Of a DNA stretch of 54,789 nt, positions 9,167 to 48,073 are shown piece by piece. The first letter of the stretch is position 1, and each line of letters begins with the position of its first letter. The notes under the pieces were generated by a model. It saw nothing but the letters and a program-made list of their open reading frames with translations, searched no databases and was not told the origin of the DNA. The position numbers and the translations under genes were made by a program. Source of the DNA: Nitrospiraceae bacterium (GTDB taxonomy: Bacteria; Nitrospirota; Thermodesulfovibrionia; UBA6902); the NCBI GenBank assembly GCA_020346765.1, contig CP070788.1:1908783-1963571 (forward strand), given 5' to 3'.

Positions 9167-9934
9167 TCAGGGGATATTGGCAGCGTCCAGTATTGAAAAG
9201 ACCTTGGTCACTGCAGCCGAATCAGCCGGCAGCTCAAAGACAGGTCTCCCCTCAAGGTCGAGGTTGAAGATGTTTTCATCTTCCGGAATATTGTAGATAC
9301 TCTCAAAGGCCAGTTCCACGCCGCAGTTTTTCAGCTTCTCAAAATGATCGTCTGATACCCTGTTGATAATCAGTCTGCGCTGCGCCACATCAAGCTGAAG
9401 CTCATCAACAAGGTTGTTGATGCGGTTTCCTGTCAGGACACCCTTCTTTGTAGGGTCGCTTATGACGAGCAGCAGGTCTACCTTGTGGGTCGTGCGCCTG
9501 CTCAGGTGCTCCATACCGGCTTCATTGTCAATGACCACGTAAGTATATTTTTCGGAGAGCCTGTCCGTATATTTCCGGATAATGTTATTTGCGGCACAGT
9601 AGCAGCCGGGCCCTTCGGGCCTGCCCATGACCATGAGGTCAAATCCCTGTGCCTCGATAAGGGACTGCTGGACCTGGTAGTCAAAGAGCTGCTCCATACT
9701 CATGCCGCCGGGACGGTCTGCTCCGCTCCGCACCGTGGCAAGGGACTCCTCCCTGAGCCTGCCGATCGTGGCGTGAACAGTTACGCCCAGCGCCTCATTG
9801 AGGCAGTTATTGCTGTCAGCGTCAACGGCAAGGACTGCCTTCTGTTTTTTTTCAACAAGATAGCGCACGGTCAGGGCAGCAATGGTTGTCTTTCCCGTGC
9901 CCCCTTTCCCTGCAAATCCGATCACATATGCCAT
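9167..9934 (-). CDS. cooC: CooC/AcsF-type nickel-insertion ATPase (CO dehydrogenase maturation factor family)
   Basis: 255 aa. It has the deviant Walker A GKGGTGKTT and the CooC-type CxC metal motif (PEGPGCYCAANN). An extended -10 (TGCTATAAT) is readable on the minus strand about 25 nt upstream. Confidence 0.75.
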   Translation of the reverse strand: MAYVIGFAGKGGTGKTTIAALTVRYLVEKKQKAVLAVDADSNNCLNEALGVTVHATIGRLREESLATVRSGADRPGGMSMEQLFDYQVQQSLIEAQGFDLMVMGRPEGPGCYCAANNIIRKYTDRLSEKYTYVVIDNEAGMEHLSRRTTHKVDLLLVISDPTKKGVLTGNRINNLVDELQLDVAQRRLIINRVSDDHFEKLKNCGVELAFESIYNIPEDENIFNLDLEGRPVFELPADSAAVTKVFSILDAANIP

Positions 9935-10153
9935 GGTGTATAGAATATCCCTTTCCCGGCATTATAGCAAGGCCGGGCGAGCTCTTGTTCTTGCTGGCCG
10001 GACTAAAACAATCTCAAGAAAGCATGCCTGCCGTGCCGGTACGCGAAAGGACACTCATGAGAGGGGTTTCGTACTTTGCCCCTGTCACTTAAAGTATTGA
10101 TAAATAATACCGATATATAAAAACACATTGCTAAATCCGGAGGATGAGGAATT

Positions 10154-11824
10154 ATGAAATTAACTATCGGGAATAAACTGCTCCTGCTCTTTGCCGTCCT
10201 GGTTGTCATGTTTATCATTTTTGCCCTCTATGTCAGGCATGACCTGAAGGAGTACGAAAGGGACTTCGAGAGTGCGGGAGTCGTTCAGAAGAAAATACTG
10301 ATCGCAAAGGACATACAGCTCCATGTCCTGAACCTCTGGCAGTACATGACTGATGCCTCACTGACGAAAGACATGACGGTAATTGAAAAAAAGGCACGGC
10401 CTCATTACGAGGCTGCCCTGCAGCAGGTCGATACGTTTCTCACAACCGGCGATGAGCGGGAACATGAAAAGGAGCTGGCAGCAATAAAGGATGACCTTGC
10501 CGATATGTGGATGACCGGCAAAGAAATGTTTGCTGCCTACAGCCAGGACCAGGATGGGGGAAACAGGATCATGGAGGACTATGCCAGAGGCGCCGGAGGG
10601 ATTGTTGACGCTGTCTCCTCTCTCGAAAAGAGTGTAAACGAAGGGGGCCAGGCTGCCACCGGGACGATATTCCTCAAGGTGGATAAGTCCCTGGCCATTG
10701 TGTCCGCGGTGCTCATCGCGGCATGTATCATCGGAGTGGGTATTTTCCTGTCCCTGCGTTTGCTGAACAAATCTATCACGGTGCCGATCTCCCGAATCGC
10801 CGAAGTTGTGCACAAAGTTGCATCGGGAGACCTGACCGCTTCACTGAAGGACATGACAGTGAAGAACGAGGTGGGTGATCTAGCCCGTGATGTTGATACC
10901 ATGATTGATAAGCTCAGGCTCCTTATCAACCAGGTCATGGGCGGGGTAAATGAACTTTCAGGATCGGCTGACGATCTATCGGAAGTGGCCGTCTATATCG
11001 TTGAAGGTGTATCTGAACAAAGCGGGAAGACCTCCCAGGTGGCAGCTGCCTCTCATGAGCTGAATGCCACGATTCTCGATGTCGCGAAAAACGCCTCAGG
11101 CGCTGCGGACGCAGCGCGGGAGGCCAACGAGGTCGCCAGGGAAGGCGGAAAAATAGTGGAGAAGAGCGTTGTCAGCATCAATGGGATAGCCAGTACGTCG
11201 AAAGAAACGTCGAGTGTCATGGCGGTTTTGGGAACCCGGTCCAAGGAAGTGGGTAACATTATTCAGGTCATCGACGAAATTGCCAGCCAGACGAATCTCC
11301 TCGCCCTGAATGCTGCCATCGAGGCAGCCCGGGCCGGGGAACAGGGCAGGGGGTTCGCTGTTGTGGCAGACGAAGTGAGGAAGCTTGCTGAAAAGACAAC
11401 GGATGCCACAAAGGAAATCGCCCAGACCATCAAGGTAATACAGGAAGACACGGGCAAGGCACTCTCCAGCATGGAGCGAGAAATTGAGGCCGTGGAAGAG
11501 GGGGTTCGCCTTGCCACGGACGCAGGGAGCGCCCTGCAGGACATTGTCAGGAAAGTGGATGAAGTAAGCTCCATGATAGAACATATAGCCGCTGCCTCGG
11601 AAGAACAGTCAACGGCAGCCGAACAGATCGGCAGTGATATTGAACTGGTGGCAAACATATCAAGGGATACGGCTGGAAAAGCCCAGAAGATAGCTGAGAG
11701 AAGCCAGGGAATTGCTATACTTACACAGCAGCTGCGCTCATCGGTAAAGTCCTTCAGGGCAGCAGAAGACCATCCTGCGGCCCGCTCCGAACAGCAGGCA
11801 GAAGCAGCCAGCAGCACCTCATAA
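10154..11824 (+). CDS. methyl-accepting chemotaxis protein (2 TM helices, periplasmic helical sensor, HAMP, MA domain)
   Basis: 556 aa. The highly conserved MCP hairpin is [45 protein letters not shown] segment (ASGDLTA) follows TM2. Confidence 0.9.
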
Positions 11825-30598: not shown

Positions 30599-30803
30599 TT
30601 TTGAAGGGTGGTATATTCTTCCCACCTTGCCGTGTAGAAAAAAAACTATAAACCCCGTTTTACAGGTGGGTTCCCCGAAAGCAGGATCAGGCTTCCCCGA
30701 AGGGGCGCACCACATGCTTTACGCAGGATCCCTTAATTAATTTGGTCGGAATAAGTTTTAATTCCAATCACGAGCAAGGCAGGTATTTCTGGTCATGCCT
30801 TGT
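30572..30803 (-). ncRNA. candidate structured RNA (sRNA, or terminator-containing leader of the M20 gene), class unknown
   Basis: It is bounded by a sigma70-like promoter (30810..30838) and an intrinsic terminator (30572..30598). Several hairpins lie in between, including a C(UUCG)G tetraloop stem (GCCCCUUCGGGGA) and GGUGG-N10-CCACC. No credible ORF is present. Confidence 0.35.
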
Positions 30804-38859: not shown

Positions 38860-40068
38860 CTATTTATTGTCTTCCTCAACGGCGAATTTCACCATATCCA
38901 GTATCTTCGGCAGTGCCGATGTGACCCTGTCCCAGCTCGATATGAGGGGTACGCCCAGGGGGTCCTTCATGATGGTCTCCGAGGCGAGGCGTATCCCTTC
39001 GGTGAATGTTTCAACAGCAAGGCTCTCCTGATGGCGGTCAAAAAAAAGTCCGTTTACGGCAGCGTCGTCCTCGTAGCGCTTGACCATGTCCTGGGCGGTT
39101 CTCACGTATGTGGCAATGAGCGTCTTGAACAGGCCGTCCGAGAATACGAGCCCTTCGGAGGCAAGGGTCCTGAAGATGGACTTGCTGATGTCAATGCACA
39201 TTTTCAAAAGCCCCTTTGAGGCGTCATCCGGGGAGAGGGCCTGGTGCTTGTGCTCGTAATTGTCGGCAATATCAATCTGGCAGACTCTCCTTACCGCGCA
39301 GTTCCGGTAGACCTCGGCCAGCACGCCCACTTCCAGTCCCCAGTCACCCGGTATCTTGTTCACGCGGGCAAGGTCCACGTCCATGGAAAACTCCCCGGCA
39401 AGGGGATAGCGGAAGCTGTCGAGGAACTCCAGGAGCGGAACGGGTCCGTGAATTTTCTTGAGCGAGCGGAGCAGGGGGGTCACGAGAAGCCTCGTCACCC
39501 TCCCGTGCATCCTGTCCGTCACCCGGCTGTAAAAACCCTTGCAGAATTCATAGTCCAGATTCGGATTGGTGACGGGGTAGCAGAGCCTGGCGAGCATCTG
39601 ACGGTCATAGGAGAGGATGTCGCAGTCATGGAGGGCGATCACACTGATGTTTTTCTGCGCGATGATGTATCCGTATGACATCCACGCCGACTGGCCCTTC
39701 CCTGCATCGCCGAGCTGCAGGCCCGCTGACCTGATGGTCTTGTACACCTCACTGACCCTCCGTCCGTTGTTCCAGATGAGCATGGTCGTCTGGGGGAGGA
39801 CGGAGAAAAACTTGCGTGCATGGCTGAATTCTTTTTTCGTGCAGGGCCCGAGGGTGACGATTACTTCCTTCAGGTAGGTGACATTTTTTAGTTCGTTGAT
39901 GATGATCTTCAGTGCCTGCCCTTTCAGTTCAGAGTAGAGAGAGGGGAGGACGAGGGCAATGGGCCGTTCCTGTGAGTACCAGGTAAGTTCTTCCTCGATC
40001 TTATCAGGGCTGGATTGACCGAGCCTGTGAAATGTGGGGAGAATCCCGCCTTGATGAAAATCAGCCAT
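38860..40068 (-). CDS. gpgS: glucosyl-3-phosphoglycerate synthase-like glycosyltransferase (long GpgS form)
   Basis: 402 aa. It has the N-terminus MADFHQGGILPTFHRLG and a GT-A core with a DxD-like HDCD. The neighbourhood includes an MpgP-type phosphatase and a glycerate kinase. The family assignment is from memory, not from a search. Confidence 0.55.
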   Translation of the reverse strand: MADFHQGGILPTFHRLGQSSPDKIEEELTWYSQERPIALVLPSLYSELKGQALKIIINELKNVTYLKEVIVTLGPCTKKEFSHARKFFSVLPQTTMLIWNNGRRVSEVYKTIRSAGLQLGDAGKGQSAWMSYGYIIAQKNISVIALHDCDILSYDRQMLARLCYPVTNPNLDYEFCKGFYSRVTDRMHGRVTRLLVTPLLRSLKKIHGPVPLLEFLDSFRYPLAGEFSMDVDLARVNKIPGDWGLEVGVLAEVYRNCAVRRVCQIDIADNYEHKHQALSPDDASKGLLKMCIDISKSIFRTLASEGLVFSDGLFKTLIATYVRTAQDMVKRYEDDAAVNGLFFDRHQESLAVETFTEGIRLASETIMKDPLGVPLISSWDRVTSALPKILDMVKFAVEEDNK

Positions 40069-40215: not shown

Positions 40216-41571
40216 ATGCAAATGAGGGAAATAGCAGGCAAAATATTTTCTGGAGTTCTGGAGAGTGTTAATCCCCTTGCTATCGTAAAGGGCTATGGTG
40301 AACAGATACGCTCCTACTCCTCGTCAAAGGATTTCAACAGCATACGTGTCGTTGGATTTGGCAAGGCCTCCTGTCAAATGGCCCGCGCTGTTGAGGAATC
40401 ACTTGGGCCGGACGCAATTGCCAGCGGTATTGTTATTACCAAGTACGGGCATGCAGGAGCGATGCATTCAGCTGTCAGTCATCGACCCGAGGGCAGTGAG
40501 CTGTCCGGGCTCAGGAAAATAAGAGTCTTTGAGGCCGGACATCCCATCCCTGATCAGCAGGGTGTGGAGGCCGCTGAAGAAATTATCCGCCTGCTGGCTC
40601 ATTCCAAAGACAGGGACCTCGTGCTCTGCCTTGTCTCAGGAGGAGGGTCAGCCCTCTTTGTCTCTCCCTGTGAGGGGATTACGCTCAGGGAGAAGCAGGC
40701 AATCACTGACCTTCTCCTGAAATCCGGGGCGGACATTACGGAGCTAAATGCCGTGAGAAAGCACCTGTCGAAGGTCAAGGGAGGGAGGCTTGCGGAGATA
40801 GCCGCCCCTGCTGAGATCATCAGTCTCATGATATCAGACGTGATCGGAGACAGACTTGATGTGATCGCATCGGGCCCCACCGCCCCCGACCCATCGACGT
40901 TTCAGGACGCGCTGGACGTGATCAGGAAGTATTCCCTCGCTGACAGCGCACCGGCATCGGTGATGGAACTGCTGGAGCGGGGACTCCGGGGGGATATCCC
41001 TGACACCCCCAAGGCGGGAGACCCCCTGTTCAGCAGGGTGCAGAACCTGATAGTGGGGAGCAACAGAATTGCCATTGAACGGGCCCGGCAAGAGGCAGAG
41101 GCACTGGGGTACCGCACGGAGGTGCTTTCCTCGGAAATCAGCGGCGAGGCGCGGGACGTTGGTCAGTGGCTTGCCCGAAAGGCCCGGGAAGCGAGGGAAG
41201 CAGTGGGCGGGAGCACACAGTGCTTCATATCGGGGGGTGAGACAACGGTTCACGTAAGAGGGAGAGGGAAGGGCGGACGTAACACAGAGCTCGCACTGAG
41301 CTTTGCCATGGAAGCGGACGGCATGAAAGGCGTCACTCTCCTTTCGGCAGGGACGGACGGAACGGACGGACCTACGGATGCCGCTGGCGCCATTGTTGAC
41401 GGCGGCACCGTGGAAAGAGCACGGAGCCGGGGACTGAACCCCCGGGAATATCTTGAGAACAATGACTCCTATACCTTTTTTAAAGCCATAGACTCCCTGC
41501 TCATTACGGGCCCGACCGGGACCAATGTCATGGATGTGCAGATACTAATCGTGGAACAGCAGGCGGGATGA
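40216..41571 (+). CDS. glycerate 2-kinase, MOFRL family (DUF4147 + MOFRL; TtuD-like)
   Basis: 451 aa. It shows RVVGFGKASCQMA, LVSGGGSAL, LNAVRKHLSKVKGG, and the C-terminal GGETTV...GKGGRN..LAL...LLSAGTDGTDGPTDAAGA. Confidence 0.85.
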   Translation: MQMREIAGKIFSGVLESVNPLAIVKGYGEQIRSYSSSKDFNSIRVVGFGKASCQMARAVEESLGPDAIASGIVITKYGHAGAMHSAVSHRPEGSELSGLRKIRVFEAGHPIPDQQGVEAAEEIIRLLAHSKDRDLVLCLVSGGGSALFVSPCEGITLREKQAITDLLLKSGADITELNAVRKHLSKVKGGRLAEIAAPAEIISLMISDVIGDRLDVIASGPTAPDPSTFQDALDVIRKYSLADSAPASVMELLERGLRGDIPDTPKAGDPLFSRVQNLIVGSNRIAIERARQEAEALGYRTEVLSSEISGEARDVGQWLARKAREAREAVGGSTQCFISGGETTVHVRGRGKGGRNTELALSFAMEADGMKGVTLLSAGTDGTDGPTDAAGAIVDGGTVERARSRGLNPREYLENNDSYTFFKAIDSLLITGPTGTNVMDVQILIVEQQAG

Positions 41572-41885
41572 ATCCACGGAACTCGTGACAAGTGTTGCTC
41601 TGTGCGGCAGCCGCTTCAGGGACGTTGGGAGCAGGGGGCCTGAATGGACAGATCTATCTCCTCAATGTTTGCCGGGTAATCGAAGACTGAATCGGACATG
41701 GTGTTCATGCTGGGCTATGTGGAGGGGATGACGCAGGAGCTACTGTGGACGAGGGCCTGCACCTCCCGTGAAGATGCTGCTGCCTTGGCAGTGCTTCGTG
41801 CTGCACTGGAAAAGGACGGGTTTATTGCTTTGATGACGCTTATTGCGAGCTGTACGAGGTCACCGTGTGGGGTCTGTGAGAGGGC

Positions 41886-41991
41886 AAAAAAATAGGATGC
41901 TGACTTTTTGAGGGGACATGGCTAAAGTTATTGTGGGCTCTCGTTTTAGGCGGGAAAACTTTATAGCCAAAAGTCAGCATCCGTATTTTTT
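41886..41991. repeat. palindromic element E1 (long imperfect hairpin)
   Basis: AAAAAATA-GGATGCTGACTTTT ... AAAAGTCAGCATCC-G-TATTTTTT, with a 14-bp perfect core. There is an inner second pairing GGCTAAAGTT / AACTTTATAGCC. Confidence 0.75.
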
Positions 41992-42342
41992 ATTTATATA
42001 CTCTTATCTTTAATCGGGTTCGTTGCGCTCCTTTTGTCCGTGCTCCTTCGTACTGTGAATCAGTATAGCATTATTTTCAAACTAAGGCAACCCCCTAAGA
42101 AATTATTTTTCATGCATTAATCCAAGGGATGAGATGGCAGAACCATTCAGAGGATGCCGGGGCCCGCTCTGAAAAAAATAGGATTAGAAACAGAGAGTTA
42201 AATGATGCATCTGGATCGGTGTTATCTTCATCCTGGCTGCGAAACGGGATGTATGGGACAATGAATTCCCATAGGGTAACCGGTCAGGAGGTAATAATGG
42301 GCAGGGCCACTCAATGGATATCCACGAATGAATAAAGACTAC

Positions 42343-42437
42343 GAGGGGATGGTGACTTATTTTTTGTGCGAGGTACGGTACTCAGGATCAGCAGAAAAGG
42401 GATTTCCCTTGATCAGTGCACTGTCAGCCATCCCCTC
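42343..42437. repeat. palindromic element E2, related to E1
   Basis: GAGGGGATGGTGAC ... GTCAGCCATCCCCTC. It shares the GGATG[C/G]TGAC / GTCAGC(C)ATCC arms with E1. It encloses the palindrome AAGGGA-TT-TCCCTT flanked by GATCAG direct repeats. Confidence 0.7.
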
Positions 42438-42504
42438 AAATAGTACATCTTTAATTATACGCGACCGGCAGGGGTTGTGACGTCTGTCCCCCATTACTGG
42501 CGGC

Positions 42505-42813
42505 CTATTTTGAAGAAGCTGCGTATGCCTGCCCCGGCTTCATCAGCGAGAACTTTTCCGGGCCTTCCTCGGTTTTTACCTGTTTGAATACTTCACAGGA
42601 CATGCAGGACACTGACTTCTGGGCAAAATCGCCCTGCACCTTTCCTCCGCAGAAGGTGCCAGCTACGGCCCAGCATATGCGGCCGCCGTTTTTCCCTCCG
42701 TTGATCCCGTTACACGATGTATCAGTGGCCGCAGGGCATACGCCCATTTCCGCCGATTTGCTTCCTCCTGCTTCCCTCCCGCACTTTTTTACTTCCCAGC
42801 AGTTCTTTTTCAC
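42505..42813 (-). CDS. stand-alone cysteine-rich 'two-CW'-type domain protein
   Basis: 102 aa. The GTG start lies 5 nt after AAGGAGGG. It reads MKKNCWEVKKCGRE...CPAA...C...GGRICWAVAGTFCGG...CMSCEVF. Eight Cys (positions 5, 11, 26, 34, 47, 55, 70, 73) and two CW dipeptides are present. There is no signal peptide and no TM segment. Confidence 0.65.
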   Translation of the reverse strand: MKKNCWEVKKCGREAGGSKSAEMGVCPAATDTSCNGINGGKNGGRICWAVAGTFCGGKVQGDFAQKSVSCMSCEVFKQVKTEEGPEKFSLMKPGQAYAASSK

Positions 42814-43163
42814 TATACCCTCCTTTCTGGTTCTTTTATTTCTGAACAGTCTATGAAATCAGTTTTACTGCTCCTCTGCACTTTCTATCGGCACGGGAAA
42901 AATTATCTTTAGTCTGCCAGCGGTATCAGGAACAGGGCTCTGGTGAAGGCCTCCTGTCCGGGTATGGGGATGCCCGGGATGGGTTAAGCCGCCAGGGCAG
43001 AACGTCCTATAGTTTTACTCAACGAAAGGACAGTATCCCATGATATCTCTGGAATCAGAAATATACACTCCAATTTCTGGCCTGGGCAATATATGAACGC
43101 GCTGAGTCCAGAAGGGACGCTCATGGCGGTAAAATGTGTGAAATAATAAGCGTGATGACTGTT

Positions 43164-43811
43164 TTAAACCGACGTGAGTCCTTCCCTGATGGCATACTTT
43201 GTCAATTCGGCGACCGTGCGGATATTCAGCTTGCCCATGACCTGCCGGCGGTGGGACTCGACGGTCTTGGCACTCACGTGAAGGTCAGCGGCAATCTGTT
43301 TGGTGGATTTCCCCTCAGTGATAAGCTGAAGGACTTCACGCTCCCGATCGGTCAGCAGGGCAAAGGACTTGGGGCTTGGCAGGGGAGGATGGTTGACGAG
43401 GCTCTCCACGAGAAGGGACGCTATCTGGGGGTTTACATAGGTCTTGCCGTTCATCACGATGCGAACGGCCTGCTCCAGTTCATCAAAGGCGCTATCCTTG
43501 ATCAGATAGCCCGATGCGCCTGCCTTGAATATTTCCGAAACGAACTGTTTGTCATAATGCATGGACAGGGCTATAACCCTGGTTGCAGGGTTGTCTGATA
43601 GTATTCTTCTTGTGGCCTCAATACCGTTCATATCGGGCATGCTGATATCCATAATCACGATGTCCGGGTGAAGTTCTTTTGCCAGGTCTATTGCCCTGGC
43701 CCCCTCGCCGGCCTCACCGATAACTTCCATGTCCGCATATTCCTTGATGAGTGAACAGATTCCCTCCCGGAGGATCTTATGGTCATCGACAAGCAATATT
43801 CTTATTTTCAT
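43164..43811 (-). CDS. NarL/FixJ (LuxR-type HTH) response regulator
   Basis: 215 aa. It has a REC domain (ILLVDDH...DIVIMDISMPDMNG) and a C-terminal LuxR HTH (LTDREREVLQLITEGKSTKQIAADLHVSAKTVESHR). Confidence 0.9.
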   Translation of the reverse strand: MKIRILLVDDHKILREGICSLIKEYADMEVIGEAGEGARAIDLAKELHPDIVIMDISMPDMNGIEATRRILSDNPATRVIALSMHYDKQFVSEIFKAGASGYLIKDSAFDELEQAVRIVMNGKTYVNPQIASLLVESLVNHPPLPSPKSFALLTDREREVLQLITEGKSTKQIAADLHVSAKTVESHRRQVMGKLNIRTVAELTKYAIREGLTSV

Positions 43812-46255
43812 ACGTACCTCGTATCCTGTTCTCCGGGCAGGGGGGCTGAAAGGGTGACCCTTGTCCCCTCGCCGGGAGCTGATTTGATGTCAAACTCACC
43901 TTGTATATGGCGCATCTTTTCCCGAATGCTGAAAAGCCCGAAACCCTCACGGGATGCTGAAGGCGGGGAAAAGCCTGTCCCGTTGTCCTCAACGACAATG
44001 ATAAACCGGCCGTCTTTCTTGCTCAATACAATTGTAATGGCCGATGCATGTGCGTGCTTTGCTGCGTTGAACAGCAGCTCCCTCACGGCCTGATACAGGA
44101 AAAAGCGCGTGCTGCTGTCATATGCCTTGTCCAGGTTGCAGTCGATCAGCGTGACCGGGATGCTATAGTTGCGGCTGAACTGTTCGATGAGCCACTTGAT
44201 TGCCTGGACGAGCCCCAGTTCGTAGAGTATAGGCGGGCTCAGCTCAAATGTCAATGACCGTGTCTCCCCAATTGTCTGTTCGATCATCTGGAGGACCTCC
44301 CTGATGCTGTTCTTAAGATCCGGCGATTCGATAGACTTGCTCAGGAGGCCGAGCTTGATCCGTGAAAGGGCCAGGGTCTGGCCGACGCAATCATGGAGTT
44401 CCGTGGCAATACGCCGTTTTTCGTTCTCTTCGATGAGAGCCATCTCTGAGCTGAGGGCCTGGAGCTGCTTCAGATACCCCTGAGATATTTTCTCCGCCTT
44501 CTTCCGGCCTTCTATCTCGTTACGGAGGTTCCTGTTGGCCTCGGTCAACTCCTGGGTCCTCTCGGCGACAAGCTCCTCAAGGCGGTCGTGATGCTTACGC
44601 AGTTCCGCTTCAACCTCCTTGTGATGCGACATGTCCCTGAATATTCCCTGTATAACCTGTTTCCCGCCTATTTCCGTGACACTTACGCTGATCTCAACGG
44701 GGATCTCCTTTCCCGAACTGTGCACGACGTATAGATCATAGGTCCTGCCTTCGCCTTTACGGACATAATCCATGAAAATTTTCCGGCAGCGCTCTTTTTC
44801 CCGGGGGGGATGAAGATAAGACTGGTGCATCCCGATGATGTTGCTGAGGGGTATTCCCAGCATCTGTGCCGCCCTCCTGTTCGCGTCTATGATAATGCCG
44901 GTTTTAGTATCGGCAAGGAATATGGCGTCATTGGCGATTTCAATGAGCTTTTTGTACTTCTCCTCCGATTTTCTCAGATCGGCCTGGGACTGTCTTGCTT
45001 CGGTTATGTCGAGAAGCACTCCCGTGATGACATCGCCGTCAATGGCGGCGCTCATGAGAATGTTCATATTATTCCCTGATTTCGTCACCGCCGTCATTTC
45101 ATAGTTTGCAACCCTTTCTGATTGACGCAGAAGCTTGAGGAACCGGGTACGGTCTTTTTCGTACCGGTAGAATGAAAGGACCGAGGCCTGCATCATTTCT
45201 TCGGAAGAGCTGAAGCCGAACATGCCCGCCGCGGTCCTGTTGACAAAAAGAATTTCTCCCTGGACCGTTGTCTTGAAAATCCCCACGAGGGAGTTTTCCA
45301 GAATGTTCTTGTATTCCCTGTTGGCCCTGGCGATTTCCATTTCCGAGCGAGTGCGCTCTATTTCCGAAGATGCACGGGAAGCAAATATCTGAAGCACTGA
45401 CTCGACCAACCGGACATTCCTTATGGATTTCCGGTACATGACCGCCATAAGACCGAGCTGTTCACCCGCTGAATCAAAGAGGGGCACCCCTGCGTATCCT
45501 TCCACGTGCAGGGCTGCCATCACACCTGCCTCAGGAAAAAGCCGCTGTACTCCCGACGGGTACGTGCGCGCTGTCCTGCCTTGGACGGTAAAACAGGGGG
45601 TGCCGGCCATGTTCACTTCCATGTTGTCAATGACTGCGCCGTCAGTAATGAAGGAGAGCGTCCTGGCGTGGCCGGGTTTTTCTGGGATAATCTCGGCGAT
45701 GTATGCGTAATCTGCCTCCAGTATGAGCGCAATATGTTTGACCATCCTGCTGAAAAAATCTTTCCCCGTGGCAGCAGACACGGCCTCTGCCAGGGCAAAA
45801 ACAGAATCTCGGGCAAGCTTGTGGTCGGTGATATCCGTCACGACGCCCAGGATGGCTGGCCCCCCCTCATGTTCTATAAGCCTGGTTGCGTGAACTGCCC
45901 TCAGGTCCCTGCCTCCCTTCGTGACTAATCTGTACTCATAGGGCTCCAGTTCTTCGCCCTGCATGTGCCTCTGGAAGTTGTCCTGCACAAGAGTCTGTGA
46001 GTCATGATGGATAAGCGTCATGAAATCAAAACCTTCAGAGCAGAGTTCCTCCTTGCCATAGCCCATGACCTCTTCACACTTTTTATTGACATAGATGATA
46101 CGGCCGCCCTGATTGATAAAAATCATGACGGGGGCTTTATCAACGATTTGACGGAACAGTAACCCTGTCTCAAGGGCTGGTGTTTCTGCTTTTTTTAAGC
46201 TGTCCATTGTGCCGGGGGTTCCTGCTTTTTTTATAACGGCTACTGGCCGGGTCAC
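43808..46255 (-). CDS. cytoplasmic sensor histidine kinase, PAS-GAF-PAS-PAS-HisKA_3-HATPase
   Basis: 815 aa with no TM segment. It has the NarX/DegS-type phospho-acceptor (RRIATELHDCVGQTLA) and ATPase G-boxes (VEDNGTGF, GFGLFSIRE). It overlaps the RR gene by 4 nt. Confidence 0.85.
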   Translation of the reverse strand: MTRPVAVIKKAGTPGTMDSLKKAETPALETGLLFRQIVDKAPVMIFINQGGRIIYVNKKCEEVMGYGKEELCSEGFDFMTLIHHDSQTLVQDNFQRHMQGEELEPYEYRLVTKGGRDLRAVHATRLIEHEGGPAILGVVTDITDHKLARDSVFALAEAVSAATGKDFFSRMVKHIALILEADYAYIAEIIPEKPGHARTLSFITDGAVIDNMEVNMAGTPCFTVQGRTARTYPSGVQRLFPEAGVMAALHVEGYAGVPLFDSAGEQLGLMAVMYRKSIRNVRLVESVLQIFASRASSEIERTRSEMEIARANREYKNILENSLVGIFKTTVQGEILFVNRTAAGMFGFSSSEEMMQASVLSFYRYEKDRTRFLKLLRQSERVANYEMTAVTKSGNNMNILMSAAIDGDVITGVLLDITEARQSQADLRKSEEKYKKLIEIANDAIFLADTKTGIIIDANRRAAQMLGIPLSNIIGMHQSYLHPPREKERCRKIFMDYVRKGEGRTYDLYVVHSSGKEIPVEISVSVTEIGGKQVIQGIFRDMSHHKEVEAELRKHHDRLEELVAERTQELTEANRNLRNEIEGRKKAEKISQGYLKQLQALSSEMALIEENEKRRIATELHDCVGQTLALSRIKLGLLSKSIESPDLKNSIREVLQMIEQTIGETRSLTFELSPPILYELGLVQAIKWLIEQFSRNYSIPVTLIDCNLDKAYDSSTRFFLYQAVRELLFNAAKHAHASAITIVLSKKDGRFIIVVEDNGTGFSPPSASREGFGLFSIREKMRHIQGEFDIKSAPGEGTRVTLSAPLPGEQDTRYV

Positions 46256-46456: not shown

Positions 46457-47278
46457 ATGAATATTCTTTTCTTTACAGATCTCGATGGCACCCTTCTTGA
46501 TTCACGCTACTCCTTCAGAAAGGCCGTGCCCGCCCTGAAGCGTATCAGGAACCTTGCCATCCCGCTGGTGCTGTGCTCAAGCAAGACCGCCGCTGAAATA
46601 GAGGTTATCAGAAAAAGGATCGGCAACCATGATCCCTTTGTCTCAGAAAACGGAGGAGGGATCTTCATTCCAGAGGAAGCCGGCCTGAAGGTCCGGAAAT
46701 CCCAGTTTCACGTGATGAAGGAGGGTAGCTATTCTGTCATTAAACTGGGGGCGTCCTACAGTGATCTGCGAAAGGCTCTCAGTGATCTGCGCTCGAAGGG
46801 TGTTGCAGTTCGGGGATTTGGCGATATGACTGCCCGCGAGGTTGCCGGCCTCACGGGACTCAGACTGTCTGACGCCAGACTGGCAAAGCAACGGCACTTT
46901 GACGAGCCCTTTGTCTTTGAGGGAAGCCCCCGGACTGCTGCCGCACTCCTGCGTCAGATCAGGGCACAAGGCCTCCGCCATACACGGGGGGAGTTTTTTC
47001 ACCTCATGGGCGACAGCGACAAGGGGAAGGCGGTGGAGATCGTAAAAAGCCTGTATCTCAAAGGCCACGGTGCACTCATTACCGCGGCTCTTGGAGACAG
47101 CCCCAATGACATTGAAATGCTGCTCCAGGTAGATTATCCCGTCGTGGTGAAAAAGGAGAACGGTCGTTATCATCCCGAAGTGGTCAAAAGGGTGCCGGGG
47201 CTCATACGGGCCCGCGGAGCGGGGCCTGAAGGATGGAACAGGGCGGTGAATGAACTACTTGAAGCTCTGCTCCTCTGA
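46457..47278 (+). CDS. HAD-IIB phosphatase of the mannosyl-/glucosyl-3-phosphoglycerate phosphatase (MpgP/YedP) family
   Basis: 273 aa. It has the N-terminal nucleophile motif [10 protein letters not shown], then CSSKT, and a C-terminal GDSPND. Confidence 0.8.
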
Positions 47279-48073
47279 GGGAAATATCCCCTGTTCTATT
47301 TCATCCCGGTATGCTGTGATCGCCTTCAGCGCATCCTCTTTCAGGTTCGCGTAACGCTTTATGAATTTCGGTATGAACCGTTCAAATAGTCCGATCACGT
47401 CATGGAGCACCAGCACCTGACCGTCACACCGGGGGCCGGCGCCGATGCCGATCGTGGGAATCGACAGCTCGGAGGTGATCTGGGCAGCGAGGTCCATGGG
47501 GATGGCCTCCAGAAGGAGCGCAAAGGCCCCGGCATCCTCGACGATATGGGCTTCATCAACAAGCCTCAGCGCCGACTCTTCAGTCTTCCCCTGTACCTTG
47601 TAGCCGCCCATCCGGTGGATTGACTGGGGTGTGAGCCCGATGTGGGCCATGACGGGGATGTCCGATTTTTTCATTGCCCTGATGTGGTTCGCTATCTCCG
47701 CCCCCCCTTCCATCTTCACGGCCGCTGCACCGGCTTCTTTAAGGAAGCGGCCTGCATTTCTCAGTGCATCGGCCTTTCCGGTCTGGTAGGACATGAATGG
47801 CATGTCACCGATGATCAGGGCGTTACTGACCCCGCGGGAAACCATTTTGGTATGGTAGATCATTTCATCCATGGTAACAGGCAGGGTGTTCTCAAGGCCC
47901 TGGACGACCATACCGAGGGAATCGCCAACGAGTATCCCGTCGATGCCGGCCTCGTCAACAATCCGGGCAAAGGGATAGTCGTAGGCAGTGAGCATGGTTA
48001 TTTTCCTGCCCTCCTTTTTCTTCTTCAGGAAATCCTGGATCGTAAACCTGGCCATGGTAATCTCTCTGTCCAT
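47255..48073 (-). CDS. panB: 3-methyl-2-oxobutanoate hydroxymethyltransferase (true start probably the ATG at 48055)
   Basis: [36 protein letters not shown] is canonical PanB. Codon 7 (MARFTIQDF) gives the usual N-terminus. Confidence 0.9.

Follow-up and report, generated by a model that had tools for sequence, protein, structure and literature searches.

The 54,789-nt stretch of contig CP070788.1 from a Nitrospiraceae bacterium that we analyzed (hereafter the window) contains, at 42505..42813 on the minus strand, a gene for a stand-alone two-CW domain, which makes its 102-amino-acid (aa) product a member of a catalogued but uncharacterised protein family, and this gene and its orthologs carry a conserved sigma-28-type promoter. 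The reading that we favor, and that we consider moderately probable, is that the protein is a cytoplasmic metal-thiolate sensory module of the late motility regulon that acts in trans on chemotaxis or two-component system (TCS) proteins. In this scheme, the gene's own sigma-28 (FliA)-type promoter would make it a member of the late flagellar/chemotaxis regulon, to which chemoreceptor genes also belong, and the several paralogs of a genome would each take the 3' end of a che operon, of pilB/pilC, or of a NarL-type TCS that is followed by genes for methyl-accepting chemotaxis proteins (MCPs). The domain would then act in trans as a sensory or regulatory module on motility-linked signaling proteins, because the same domain is found fused, N- or C-terminally, to kinases, phosphatases, and PilZ, cNMP-binding, STAS, MCP, and receiver domains, and its Cys cluster would probably carry a metal or iron–sulfur (Fe-S) center responsive to redox state or to a small ligand. 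We infer the binding of a cofactor, the action in trans, and the identity of the partners from the observations presented below.

The open reading frame (ORF) begins with GTG, and a Shine–Dalgarno sequence read directly from the DNA (AAGGAGGG, 42818..42825, minus strand) lies 4 nt upstream of this codon; an equivalent AGGAGG was found in all aligned orthologous upstream regions. The product has the N-terminus MKKNCWEVKKCGRE and the full translation MKKNCWEVKKCGREAGGSKSAEMGVCPAATDTSCNGINGGKNGGRICWAVAGTFCGGKVQGDFAQKSVSCMSCEVFKQVKTEEGPEKFSLMKPGQAYAASSK. It contains Cys at positions 5, 11, 26, 34, 47, 55, 70, and 73, the Cys-Trp dipeptides C5-W6 and C47-W48, and the Gly-rich stretch NGINGGKNGGR, and no transmembrane helix was detected, the maximal Kyte–Doolittle average over 19 residues being 0.78. 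A first-pass annotation made from the sequence alone had described the ORF with its length and its strong Shine–Dalgarno sequence, the eight Cys, the two Cys-Trp dipeptides, the Gly-rich middle, and the lack of a transmembrane helix, and all of this is borne out by the translation, the upstream sequence, and the hydropathy profile. Because of this low hydropathy maximum and a calculated isoelectric point of 9.0, the protein is soluble and basic. The window holds one two-CW copy only. We found no structured 5' untranslated region (UTR) or riboswitch at this gene (z = −0.14, and only a sub-threshold Rfam match). Together with the homologs described below, these data firmly establish the ORF as a real gene under strong purifying selection.

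The name "two-CW domain" had been suggested for the Cys pattern in the first-pass annotation, and a profile search of NCBIfam confirmed it: the protein matches NCBIfam model NF045718 (two_CW_domain) with an E value of 5.8e-31 and 106.7 bits against a cutoff of 35, and residues 3–82 of the protein align with positions 1–80 of the 80 in the profile. No Pfam family matched at E ≤ 0.01. In a word-indexed search of 5.8 billion proteins we obtained 1017 homologs, of which the best 120 are 68–88% identical over their full length, are almost all 101–104 aa long, and, where named, come from metagenome-assembled genomes (MAGs) of Nitrospirota/Thermodesulfovibrionia. An exhaustive search with HMMER of 1.84 billion representatives at 50% identity extended the family to 1435 sequences at E ≤ 1e-3, 806 of them at E ≤ 1e-10. 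Among the best 150 of these representatives, 100 are shorter than 180 aa and thus free-standing and 48 have at least 200 aa; a few contain tandem two-CW copies. Free-standing forms are therefore no less common than fused ones. The unusual architectures include the tandem two-CW proteins P0121–P0124, of which P0124 (820 aa) has its copies in the middle of the protein.

The 48 long representatives reveal the company that the domain keeps. Pfam partners are HATPase_c (14), HisKA (11), Pkinase (8), cNMP_binding (7), PAS_9 (7), Response_reg (4), PilZ (4), PP2C (3), GAF_2 (3), MCPsignal (2), and STAS (2), and the two-CW domain is mostly N-terminal in these proteins, which identifies it firmly as a module of bacterial signal transduction. 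It had been stated in the first-pass annotation that the domain is normally fused to histidine kinases and chemoreceptors, among others. The fusion to signaling proteins stands (HATPase_c in 14, HisKA in 11, and MCPsignal in 2 of the 48), whereas the word "normally" does not, given that 100 of the best 150 representatives are below 180 aa. Because of the same fusions to cytoplasmic signaling proteins, we consider it unlikely that the gene encodes the precursor of a ribosomally synthesized and posttranslationally modified peptide.

Conservation was assessed in two sets of sequences, one of 155 diverse and one of 202 close family members. C5, C11, C26, C47, C55, C70, and C73 are each present in at least 94% of the diverse and in 100% of the close sequences, and N4, W6, G12, R13, G36, G40, G44, R45, W48, and T53 likewise reach at least 94%; strong conservation was further found at positions 35 (D/N), 38 (N/H), 42 (N), 60 (Q), 66 (K), and 82–83 (EE). 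Position 34 is Cys in only 13 of the 155 diverse representatives (usually L, F, A, or V) and in 104 of the 202 close relatives. Because C34 is variable, the signature of the family is seven Cys and not eight, and this variability weakens an interpretation in terms of eight Cys and two [4Fe-4S] clusters. We also considered an internal duplication, in which the pattern CW-x4-6-CG-x13-C would occur twice; its score of 29 compares with 23.6 ± 4.8 for shuffled sequences, 77 of 500 of which reach it, and the duplication is thus unsupported. In the Thermodesulfovibrionia clade, residues 45–95 are nearly invariant (GRICWAIAGTFCGGKVQGDFAQKSVSCMSCEVFKQxKxEEGxxxFxLLKPGQxY), and the C-terminal tail within this stretch is absent from fused forms.

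The extreme conservation of residues 45–95 with the tail F-x-L-L/M-K-P-G-Q-x-Y would fit a docking surface, and so bears on a different function, namely that two-CW is an effector or adaptor rather than a sensor. It would serve for output or interaction, binding for example a sigma factor, the motor switch, or a chemosensory array, and its Cys would have a structural (zinc) role. Three proteins in which a receiver domain precedes two-CW and nothing else is attached (P0147, P0193, and P0234) and one in which two-CW is C-terminal to an MCP fragment (P0148) point in the same direction. However, input modules typically lie N-terminal to their partners, as two-CW does with kinases, phosphatases, PilZ, and cNMP domains, and the protein has no Pfam match, FlgM and anti-sigma models included. 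We regard an effector or adaptor role as improbable and return to the sensory module, the genetic setting of which is described next.

Upstream of the window gene we identified a sigma-28 (FliA)-type promoter of the form TAAAGATA-N11-GCCGATAG (42885..42911, minus strand; −35 element at 42904..42911 and −10 element at 42885..42892), which reads in full TAAAGATA-ATTTTTCCCGT-GCCGATAG (42911..42885) and the −10 element of which ends 72 nt upstream of the GTG codon. The sigma-28 consensus of Escherichia coli is TAAAGTTT-n11-GCCGATAA, and the E. coli aer promoter has the same −35 element, TAAAGATA, as the two-CW promoter (PMC2859248). The motif TAAAG-N13-17-CCGATA occurs twice in the window, where 0.05 matches are expected, and none of 100 shuffled windows reached two. 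The second match, TAAAGTAT-N11-ACCGATA (10090..10115, plus strand), is located 38 nt before the gene for a chemoreceptor with HAMP and MCPsignal domains (10154..11824, plus strand; Pfam MCPsignal 5.1e-52, HAMP 2.1e-11). The sigma-28 regulon classically includes chemoreceptor genes, and this match served as an internal positive control. Based on its promoter sequence, transcription of the two-CW gene would depend on FliA.

To place the gene in a comparative context, we scanned a single genome for each GTDB species and obtained 373 confirmed matches; the best 80 of these (79 loci) were fetched and combined with loci from contig look-ups, and after removal of duplicates a set of 82 nonredundant two-CW copies resulted. 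ORFs were called in these loci, neighbors were clustered, and cluster representatives were annotated. The window protein had been labeled an orphan, a label that fails, as Thermodesulfovibrionia genomes hold two to four or more stand-alone two-CW paralogs that are 65–87% identical. Examples are the MAGs Glo_13 and SRR26215679_binner12_Refined_101 with four loci each and SURF_23 with at least four. The number of paralogs per genome, together with the failure of any FlgM model in Pfam to match, led us to reject the idea of a FlgM-type anti-sigma-28 factor.

The 82 copies fall into five synteny classes. Class (a), with 24 copies, directly follows cheB at the end of a cheR-cheY-cheY-cheA-cheW/cheZ-cheW-cheB cluster and faces flgE-flgD-fliK. 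In class (b), with 14 copies, two-CW follows a HisKA_3 kinase and a REC-GerE regulator as it does in the window. The five copies of class (c) (L014, L015, L020, L026, and L064) follow genes for T2SSE (PilB-like, with MshEN) and T2SSF (PilC-like) proteins, which ties the family to type IV pili in addition to flagella, and the five of class (d) lie between a divergent gene for a PocR-domain protein, accompanied by LivG/F-like ABC ATPases, and a DUF116 gene. The remaining 34 copies, class (e) or "other," have heterogeneous neighbors (HD 4, MCP 3, PAS 3, GerE 3, and HATPase 3 of 120). A nearest-neighbor analysis revealed that the synteny classes largely correspond to orthologous groups and that one genome holds one copy of several classes. 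The attachment of the free-standing Thermodesulfovibrionia paralogs to motility and signaling clusters is solid. The largest class comes after cheB in a chemotaxis operon (24 of 82) and not after a kinase.

We then compared the occurrence of the sigma-28-type motif upstream of two-CW genes and of other ORFs in the same loci. A strict motif is present within 200 nt upstream of 26 of the 82 two-CW genes versus 6 of 811 other ORFs (Fisher p = 1e-23), and a loose motif upstream of 35 of 82 versus 13 of 811 (p = 2e-29). By class, the loose motif was found in 14 of 14 copies of class (b), 14 of 24 of class (a), 1 of 5 of class (c), none of 5 of class (d), and 6 of 34 of class (e). The upstream regions of class (b) share CTAAAG(T/A)T-N11-12-(G/T)CCGATA(A/G) in an alignment, and most remaining loci of classes (a) and (c) contain variants with one mismatch such as TAAAGTTT-N11-GCCGATGA or TAAAGTTCC-N11-GCCGTTTA, the latter being the type of upstream element seen in class (c). 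All class (d) loci (L031, L046, L052, L072, and L083) have a conserved sigma-54-type element, GGCAT/C-N5-TTGCA, about 40–60 nt before the two-CW start. The presence of a conserved sigma-28-type promoter at the window copy and its orthologs is solid.

Strict matches elsewhere in the loci are intergenic in most cases, and the genes behind them encode MCP, GGDEF, HEAT-repeat, rhodanese, and PBP-like proteins or are small ORFs of unknown function. Two ORFs of 77–80 aa without a Pfam match, at L001:12794-13077 and L035:10142-10418, begin 16–18 nt 3' of strict motifs and are candidates for further members of the same regulon as two-CW. MCP genes in the fetched loci turned out to be a weak positive control for the motif, which lies directly upstream of 1 of 14 of them; several of these genes sit behind a motif-bearing first gene. 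Separately, the two-CW orthologs of L030, L042, L053, and L057 have a short hairpin in their 5'-UTR, with GGA in the loop in L030 and L053 (for example GAATCTCT-GAAGGATGA-GAGATTC). Such a hairpin and the AGGAGG Shine–Dalgarno sequence are together reminiscent of the sites at which CsrA binds flagellin mRNAs; no hairpin of this kind was seen at the window copy.

In the window, the upstream neighbors of the two-CW gene form a TCS. A NarL/LuxR-type response regulator gene (REC + GerE; 43164..43811, minus strand; Pfam Response_reg 2.3e-29, GerE 2.7e-20) is separated from it by 350 nt and follows, on the same strand, the gene for a soluble histidine kinase of 815 aa (43808..46255), for which Pfam and NCBIfam gave the order PAS, an unassigned stretch of about 150 aa, PAS, PAS, HisKA_3, and HATPase_c. 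This location had been noted correctly in the first-pass annotation. Its PAS-GAF-PAS-PAS architecture for the kinase stands as far as the three PAS domains are concerned, whereas no GAF domain was found by Pfam at E ≤ 0.1 in residues 150–320; with three PAS domains confirmed, its description as a kinase without obvious input fails. The interval between the regulator and two-CW genes revealed no terminator on the minus strand, so that read-through is possible. Regulator orthologs that are 69–80% identical occupy the same position in nine loci (class (b) group 1: L012, L013, L030, L042, L045, L053, L056, L057, and L079), and in a second group (L001, L035, L037, L050, and L058) the regulators are about 30% identical to that of the window; the association with NarL-type TCSs therefore recurs with two distinct lineages. 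The kinase input varies within group 1, being REC-PAS, PAS-PAS, or absent, so that only a core of 285–304 aa is left. MCP genes in group 1 usually lie one to three genes downstream of two-CW, sometimes after a rhodanese or PBP-like gene, and in L013, L030, L056, and L079 they include homologs of the window MCP.

Rhodanese genes adjoining two-CW recur in these loci, being located one gene downstream in L045 (8521-9075) and L056 (4861-5316). The rhodanese gene of L056 has its own sigma-28-type promoter, and that of L005 (2489-3325) lies upstream of a che remnant. These recurrent neighbors are a possible hint that the Cys-rich protein handles sulfur species.

The adjacency to a kinase bears directly on the proposal that two-CW is one half of a split sensor, that is, the dedicated input in trans of the adjacent PAS-HisKA_3 kinase in the manner of stand-alone H-NOX or NosP proteins. 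The recurrence of a histidine kinase, a REC-GerE regulator, and two-CW in 14 of the 82 copies and in two unrelated TCS lineages lends this proposal some support, and loci in which the kinase is only a HisKA_3 + HATPase core of 285–304 aa, as well as the histidine kinase fusions of two-CW in 14 of the 48 long representatives, are consistent with it. However, the gene is more than just the last member of the TCS operon, as the gap is 350 nt and all 14 class (b) loci provide it with its own sigma-28-type promoter. Copies beside a kinase (14) are outnumbered by those that follow cheB (24), and 44 others lie elsewhere. The fused kinases are of the HisKA type, HisKA_3 being absent from the listed families, and the core of P0179 (two-CW + HATPase_c) is 25% identical to that of the window kinase, a weak similarity. 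Moreover, the adjacent kinase already has three PAS inputs. Taken together, we find a dedicated split sensor unlikely.

A related possibility is that the link is regulatory, with the adjacent NarL-type regulator modulating the sigma-28-type promoter and the protein acting elsewhere, which would be compatible with the sensory module that we favor. The place of the gene immediately downstream of the regulator is conserved, and in the second TCS lineage (L001, L035, L037, L050, and L058) repeated (G/T)CCTATTAA-like elements overlap the −35 region. Activator-dependent sigma-28 promoters have a precedent in CRP at E. coli aer (PMC2859248). Conversely, inspection by eye of the orthologous group of the window copy revealed no conserved upstream element besides the sigma-28 boxes, and there is no binding-site model for the adjacent regulator. 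We judge it unlikely that the gene is a target of its neighbor.

As for what the Cys cluster might do, a metal or Fe-S center would be the most economical guess from the sequence, because of the seven invariant Cys, a Cys-Pro, and the glycine-rich loops. An AlphaFold2 model based on 34 close homologs was unusable with a predicted local distance difference test (pLDDT) score of 40; therefore, 77 diverse sequences were used instead and resulted in a model with a pLDDT of 81.4 and a predicted TM score of 0.72. In this model, short helices form a small bundle; its confidence is low at residues 54–65, even though this is the most conserved segment. Foldseek found no relative of the model in PDB (best E = 5.5), and searches of PDB sequences with two profiles gave no match at E ≤ 10. 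Similarity to Fe-S and zinc families (Fer4, HiPIP, Wbl, CZB, and ZAS) was detected neither with Pfam (E ≤ 0.01) nor with PDB profiles nor with Foldseek.

These searches also speak to the idea of a small ferredoxin-like electron carrier that is unrelated to signaling. Seven conserved Cys including a Cys-Pro recall, in the sequence, 7Fe ferredoxins, and one paralog (in L001) lies upstream of a group-3-type NiFe hydrogenase operon. Yet neither Fer4 nor another Fe-S family of Pfam matches, there is no structural match, the fusions are overwhelmingly to signaling domains, and synteny is with che, pilus, and TCS genes, making such a carrier very improbable.

Several observations weigh against the sensory module of the late motility regulon. 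The window contains no che or flagellar gene that we could find; the che and flagellar clusters lie beside two-CW paralogs in related genomes. The promoter was called by consensus only, the motif is absent from about half of all copies and from most copies outside Nitrospirota, and one paralog class has a sigma-54 promoter instead. With 1 of 14 MCP genes in the fetched loci directly preceded by it, the motif is not a universal marker of chemotaxis genes, and the neighbors of the 34 class (e) copies are heterogeneous. No metal-binding family or solved structure matches two-CW in Pfam, PDB, or Foldseek searches, which leaves the cofactor a guess, and searches of a literature library found no experiment or paper on the domain. 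They likewise retrieved no description of the link between a sigma-28-type promoter and two-CW genes, of an organization with one two-CW copy per motility or signaling cluster, or of the seven-Cys signature and the lack of a solved structural relative.

We also put forward, tentatively and as a possibility that we hold to be clearly less probable than the sensory module in its general form, that two-CW represents a new class of cytoplasmic Fe-S or poly-thiolate sensor with an unseen fold, the FliA-driven paralogs of which would feed redox, oxygen, or sulfur-species information to the chemotaxis array, type IV pili, and NarL-type TCSs. If so, anaerobes would have a modular system of "sensor cassettes" for energy or redox taxis. 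If the seven-Cys center is indeed an Fe-S or metal redox sensor, it would be a new class of input domain in bacterial signal transduction and would point to a candidate mechanism by which anaerobic Nitrospirota could perform redox or sulfur taxis. The family has about 1,400 representatives at 50% identity and is found on every major class of bacterial signaling output, and the ultraconserved, multicopy, free-standing forms with sigma-28- or sigma-54-type promoters and che, pilus, TCS, or MCP neighbors offer a testable route to function. The family is thus an attractive target in the search for a new sensor class in anaerobes.

The surroundings of the gene in the window differ from those in its relatives. 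The approximately 930 nt downstream of two-CW (41572..42504) contain no ORF longer than 70 aa, whereas L013, L056, and L079 have a rhodanese or PBP-like gene and one or two MCP genes at this position. The next gene, at 40216..41571 (DUF4147/MOFRL, glycerate-kinase-like), is the counterpart of the gene that follows the MCPs in L013, and a ParA/CooC-like gene at 9167..9934, beside the only MCP gene of the window, is the counterpart of a gene near the two-CW locus in L079. As judged from these flanking genes, the MCP locus (9167..11824) adjoins the two-CW locus in relatives, which makes a deletion or rearrangement in this genome likely. A tblastn search of 41572..42504 with genes that neighbor two-CW in related loci gave no match and thus no pseudogene remnants. 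The same region contains a hairpin at 41886..41991 that can be read on either strand and consists of arms of 23 nt that are 87% complementary, a loop of 60 nt, and a flanking A-run and T-run. Folded on the minus strand it has z = −3.2, and it has no Rfam match. At 42090..42062 of the minus strand there is a sigma-70-like promoter (TTGCCT-17-TATACT with TG). We interpret the element as a possible bidirectional terminator or as a possible small RNA with a length of approximately 170 nt.

The genes around the TCS/two-CW block are metabolic, and the same flanks occur in L012, L045, and L079. They include a gene for a 402-aa protein without a Pfam match (38860..40068), a gene for a HAD phosphatase of the Hydrolase_3 family (46457..47278), and an ORF at 47255..48073 that is 85% identical to a gene of L045 and takes the position of the Pantoate_transf (panB) gene in L012. 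Elsewhere in the window, 6S RNA (RF00013) was identified at 30615..30788 on the minus strand with 76.2 bits against a gathering score of 46.4.

Compared with what is known, the window protein is a full-length match to NF045718, with both CW dipeptides and all seven conserved Cys and with Cys34 as an extra, nonconserved Cys. With respect to the sigma-28 regulon as represented by E. coli aer, tar, and tsr, the window promoter fits the consensus and the chemoreceptor gene of the window has the same motif; no small Cys-rich protein is known among the classical members of this regulon. WhiB-like (Wbl) proteins resemble two-CW in being about 100 aa long, Cys-rich, highly conserved, and present as multiple paralogs. 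These actinobacterial proteins bind a [4Fe-4S] cluster, act via protein–protein contacts, and are not known to be fused to signaling domains; they have four Cys in contrast to the seven of two-CW, and homology was not detected. H-NOX and NosP are heme sensors that in some organisms are free, encoded beside a kinase gene with which they are cotranscribed, and in others are fused to MCPs or kinases. Unlike them, two-CW has its own sigma-28-type promoter, many paralogs, and no heme motif, and no sequence or fold relationship was detected; the genetic logic of a free-standing versus a fused sensor domain is nevertheless the same. The CZB domain, known from TlpD and DgcZ, folds as a four-helix bundle, and its zinc site consists of 3His/1Cys; two-CW, by contrast, has seven Cys, no conserved His, and frequent stand-alone forms, and a relationship in sequence or fold was not detected. 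The likeness between the two is one of working logic only, CZB being a small cytoplasmic metal-thiolate module at either end of chemoreceptors and other signaling proteins that senses redox state or oxidants.

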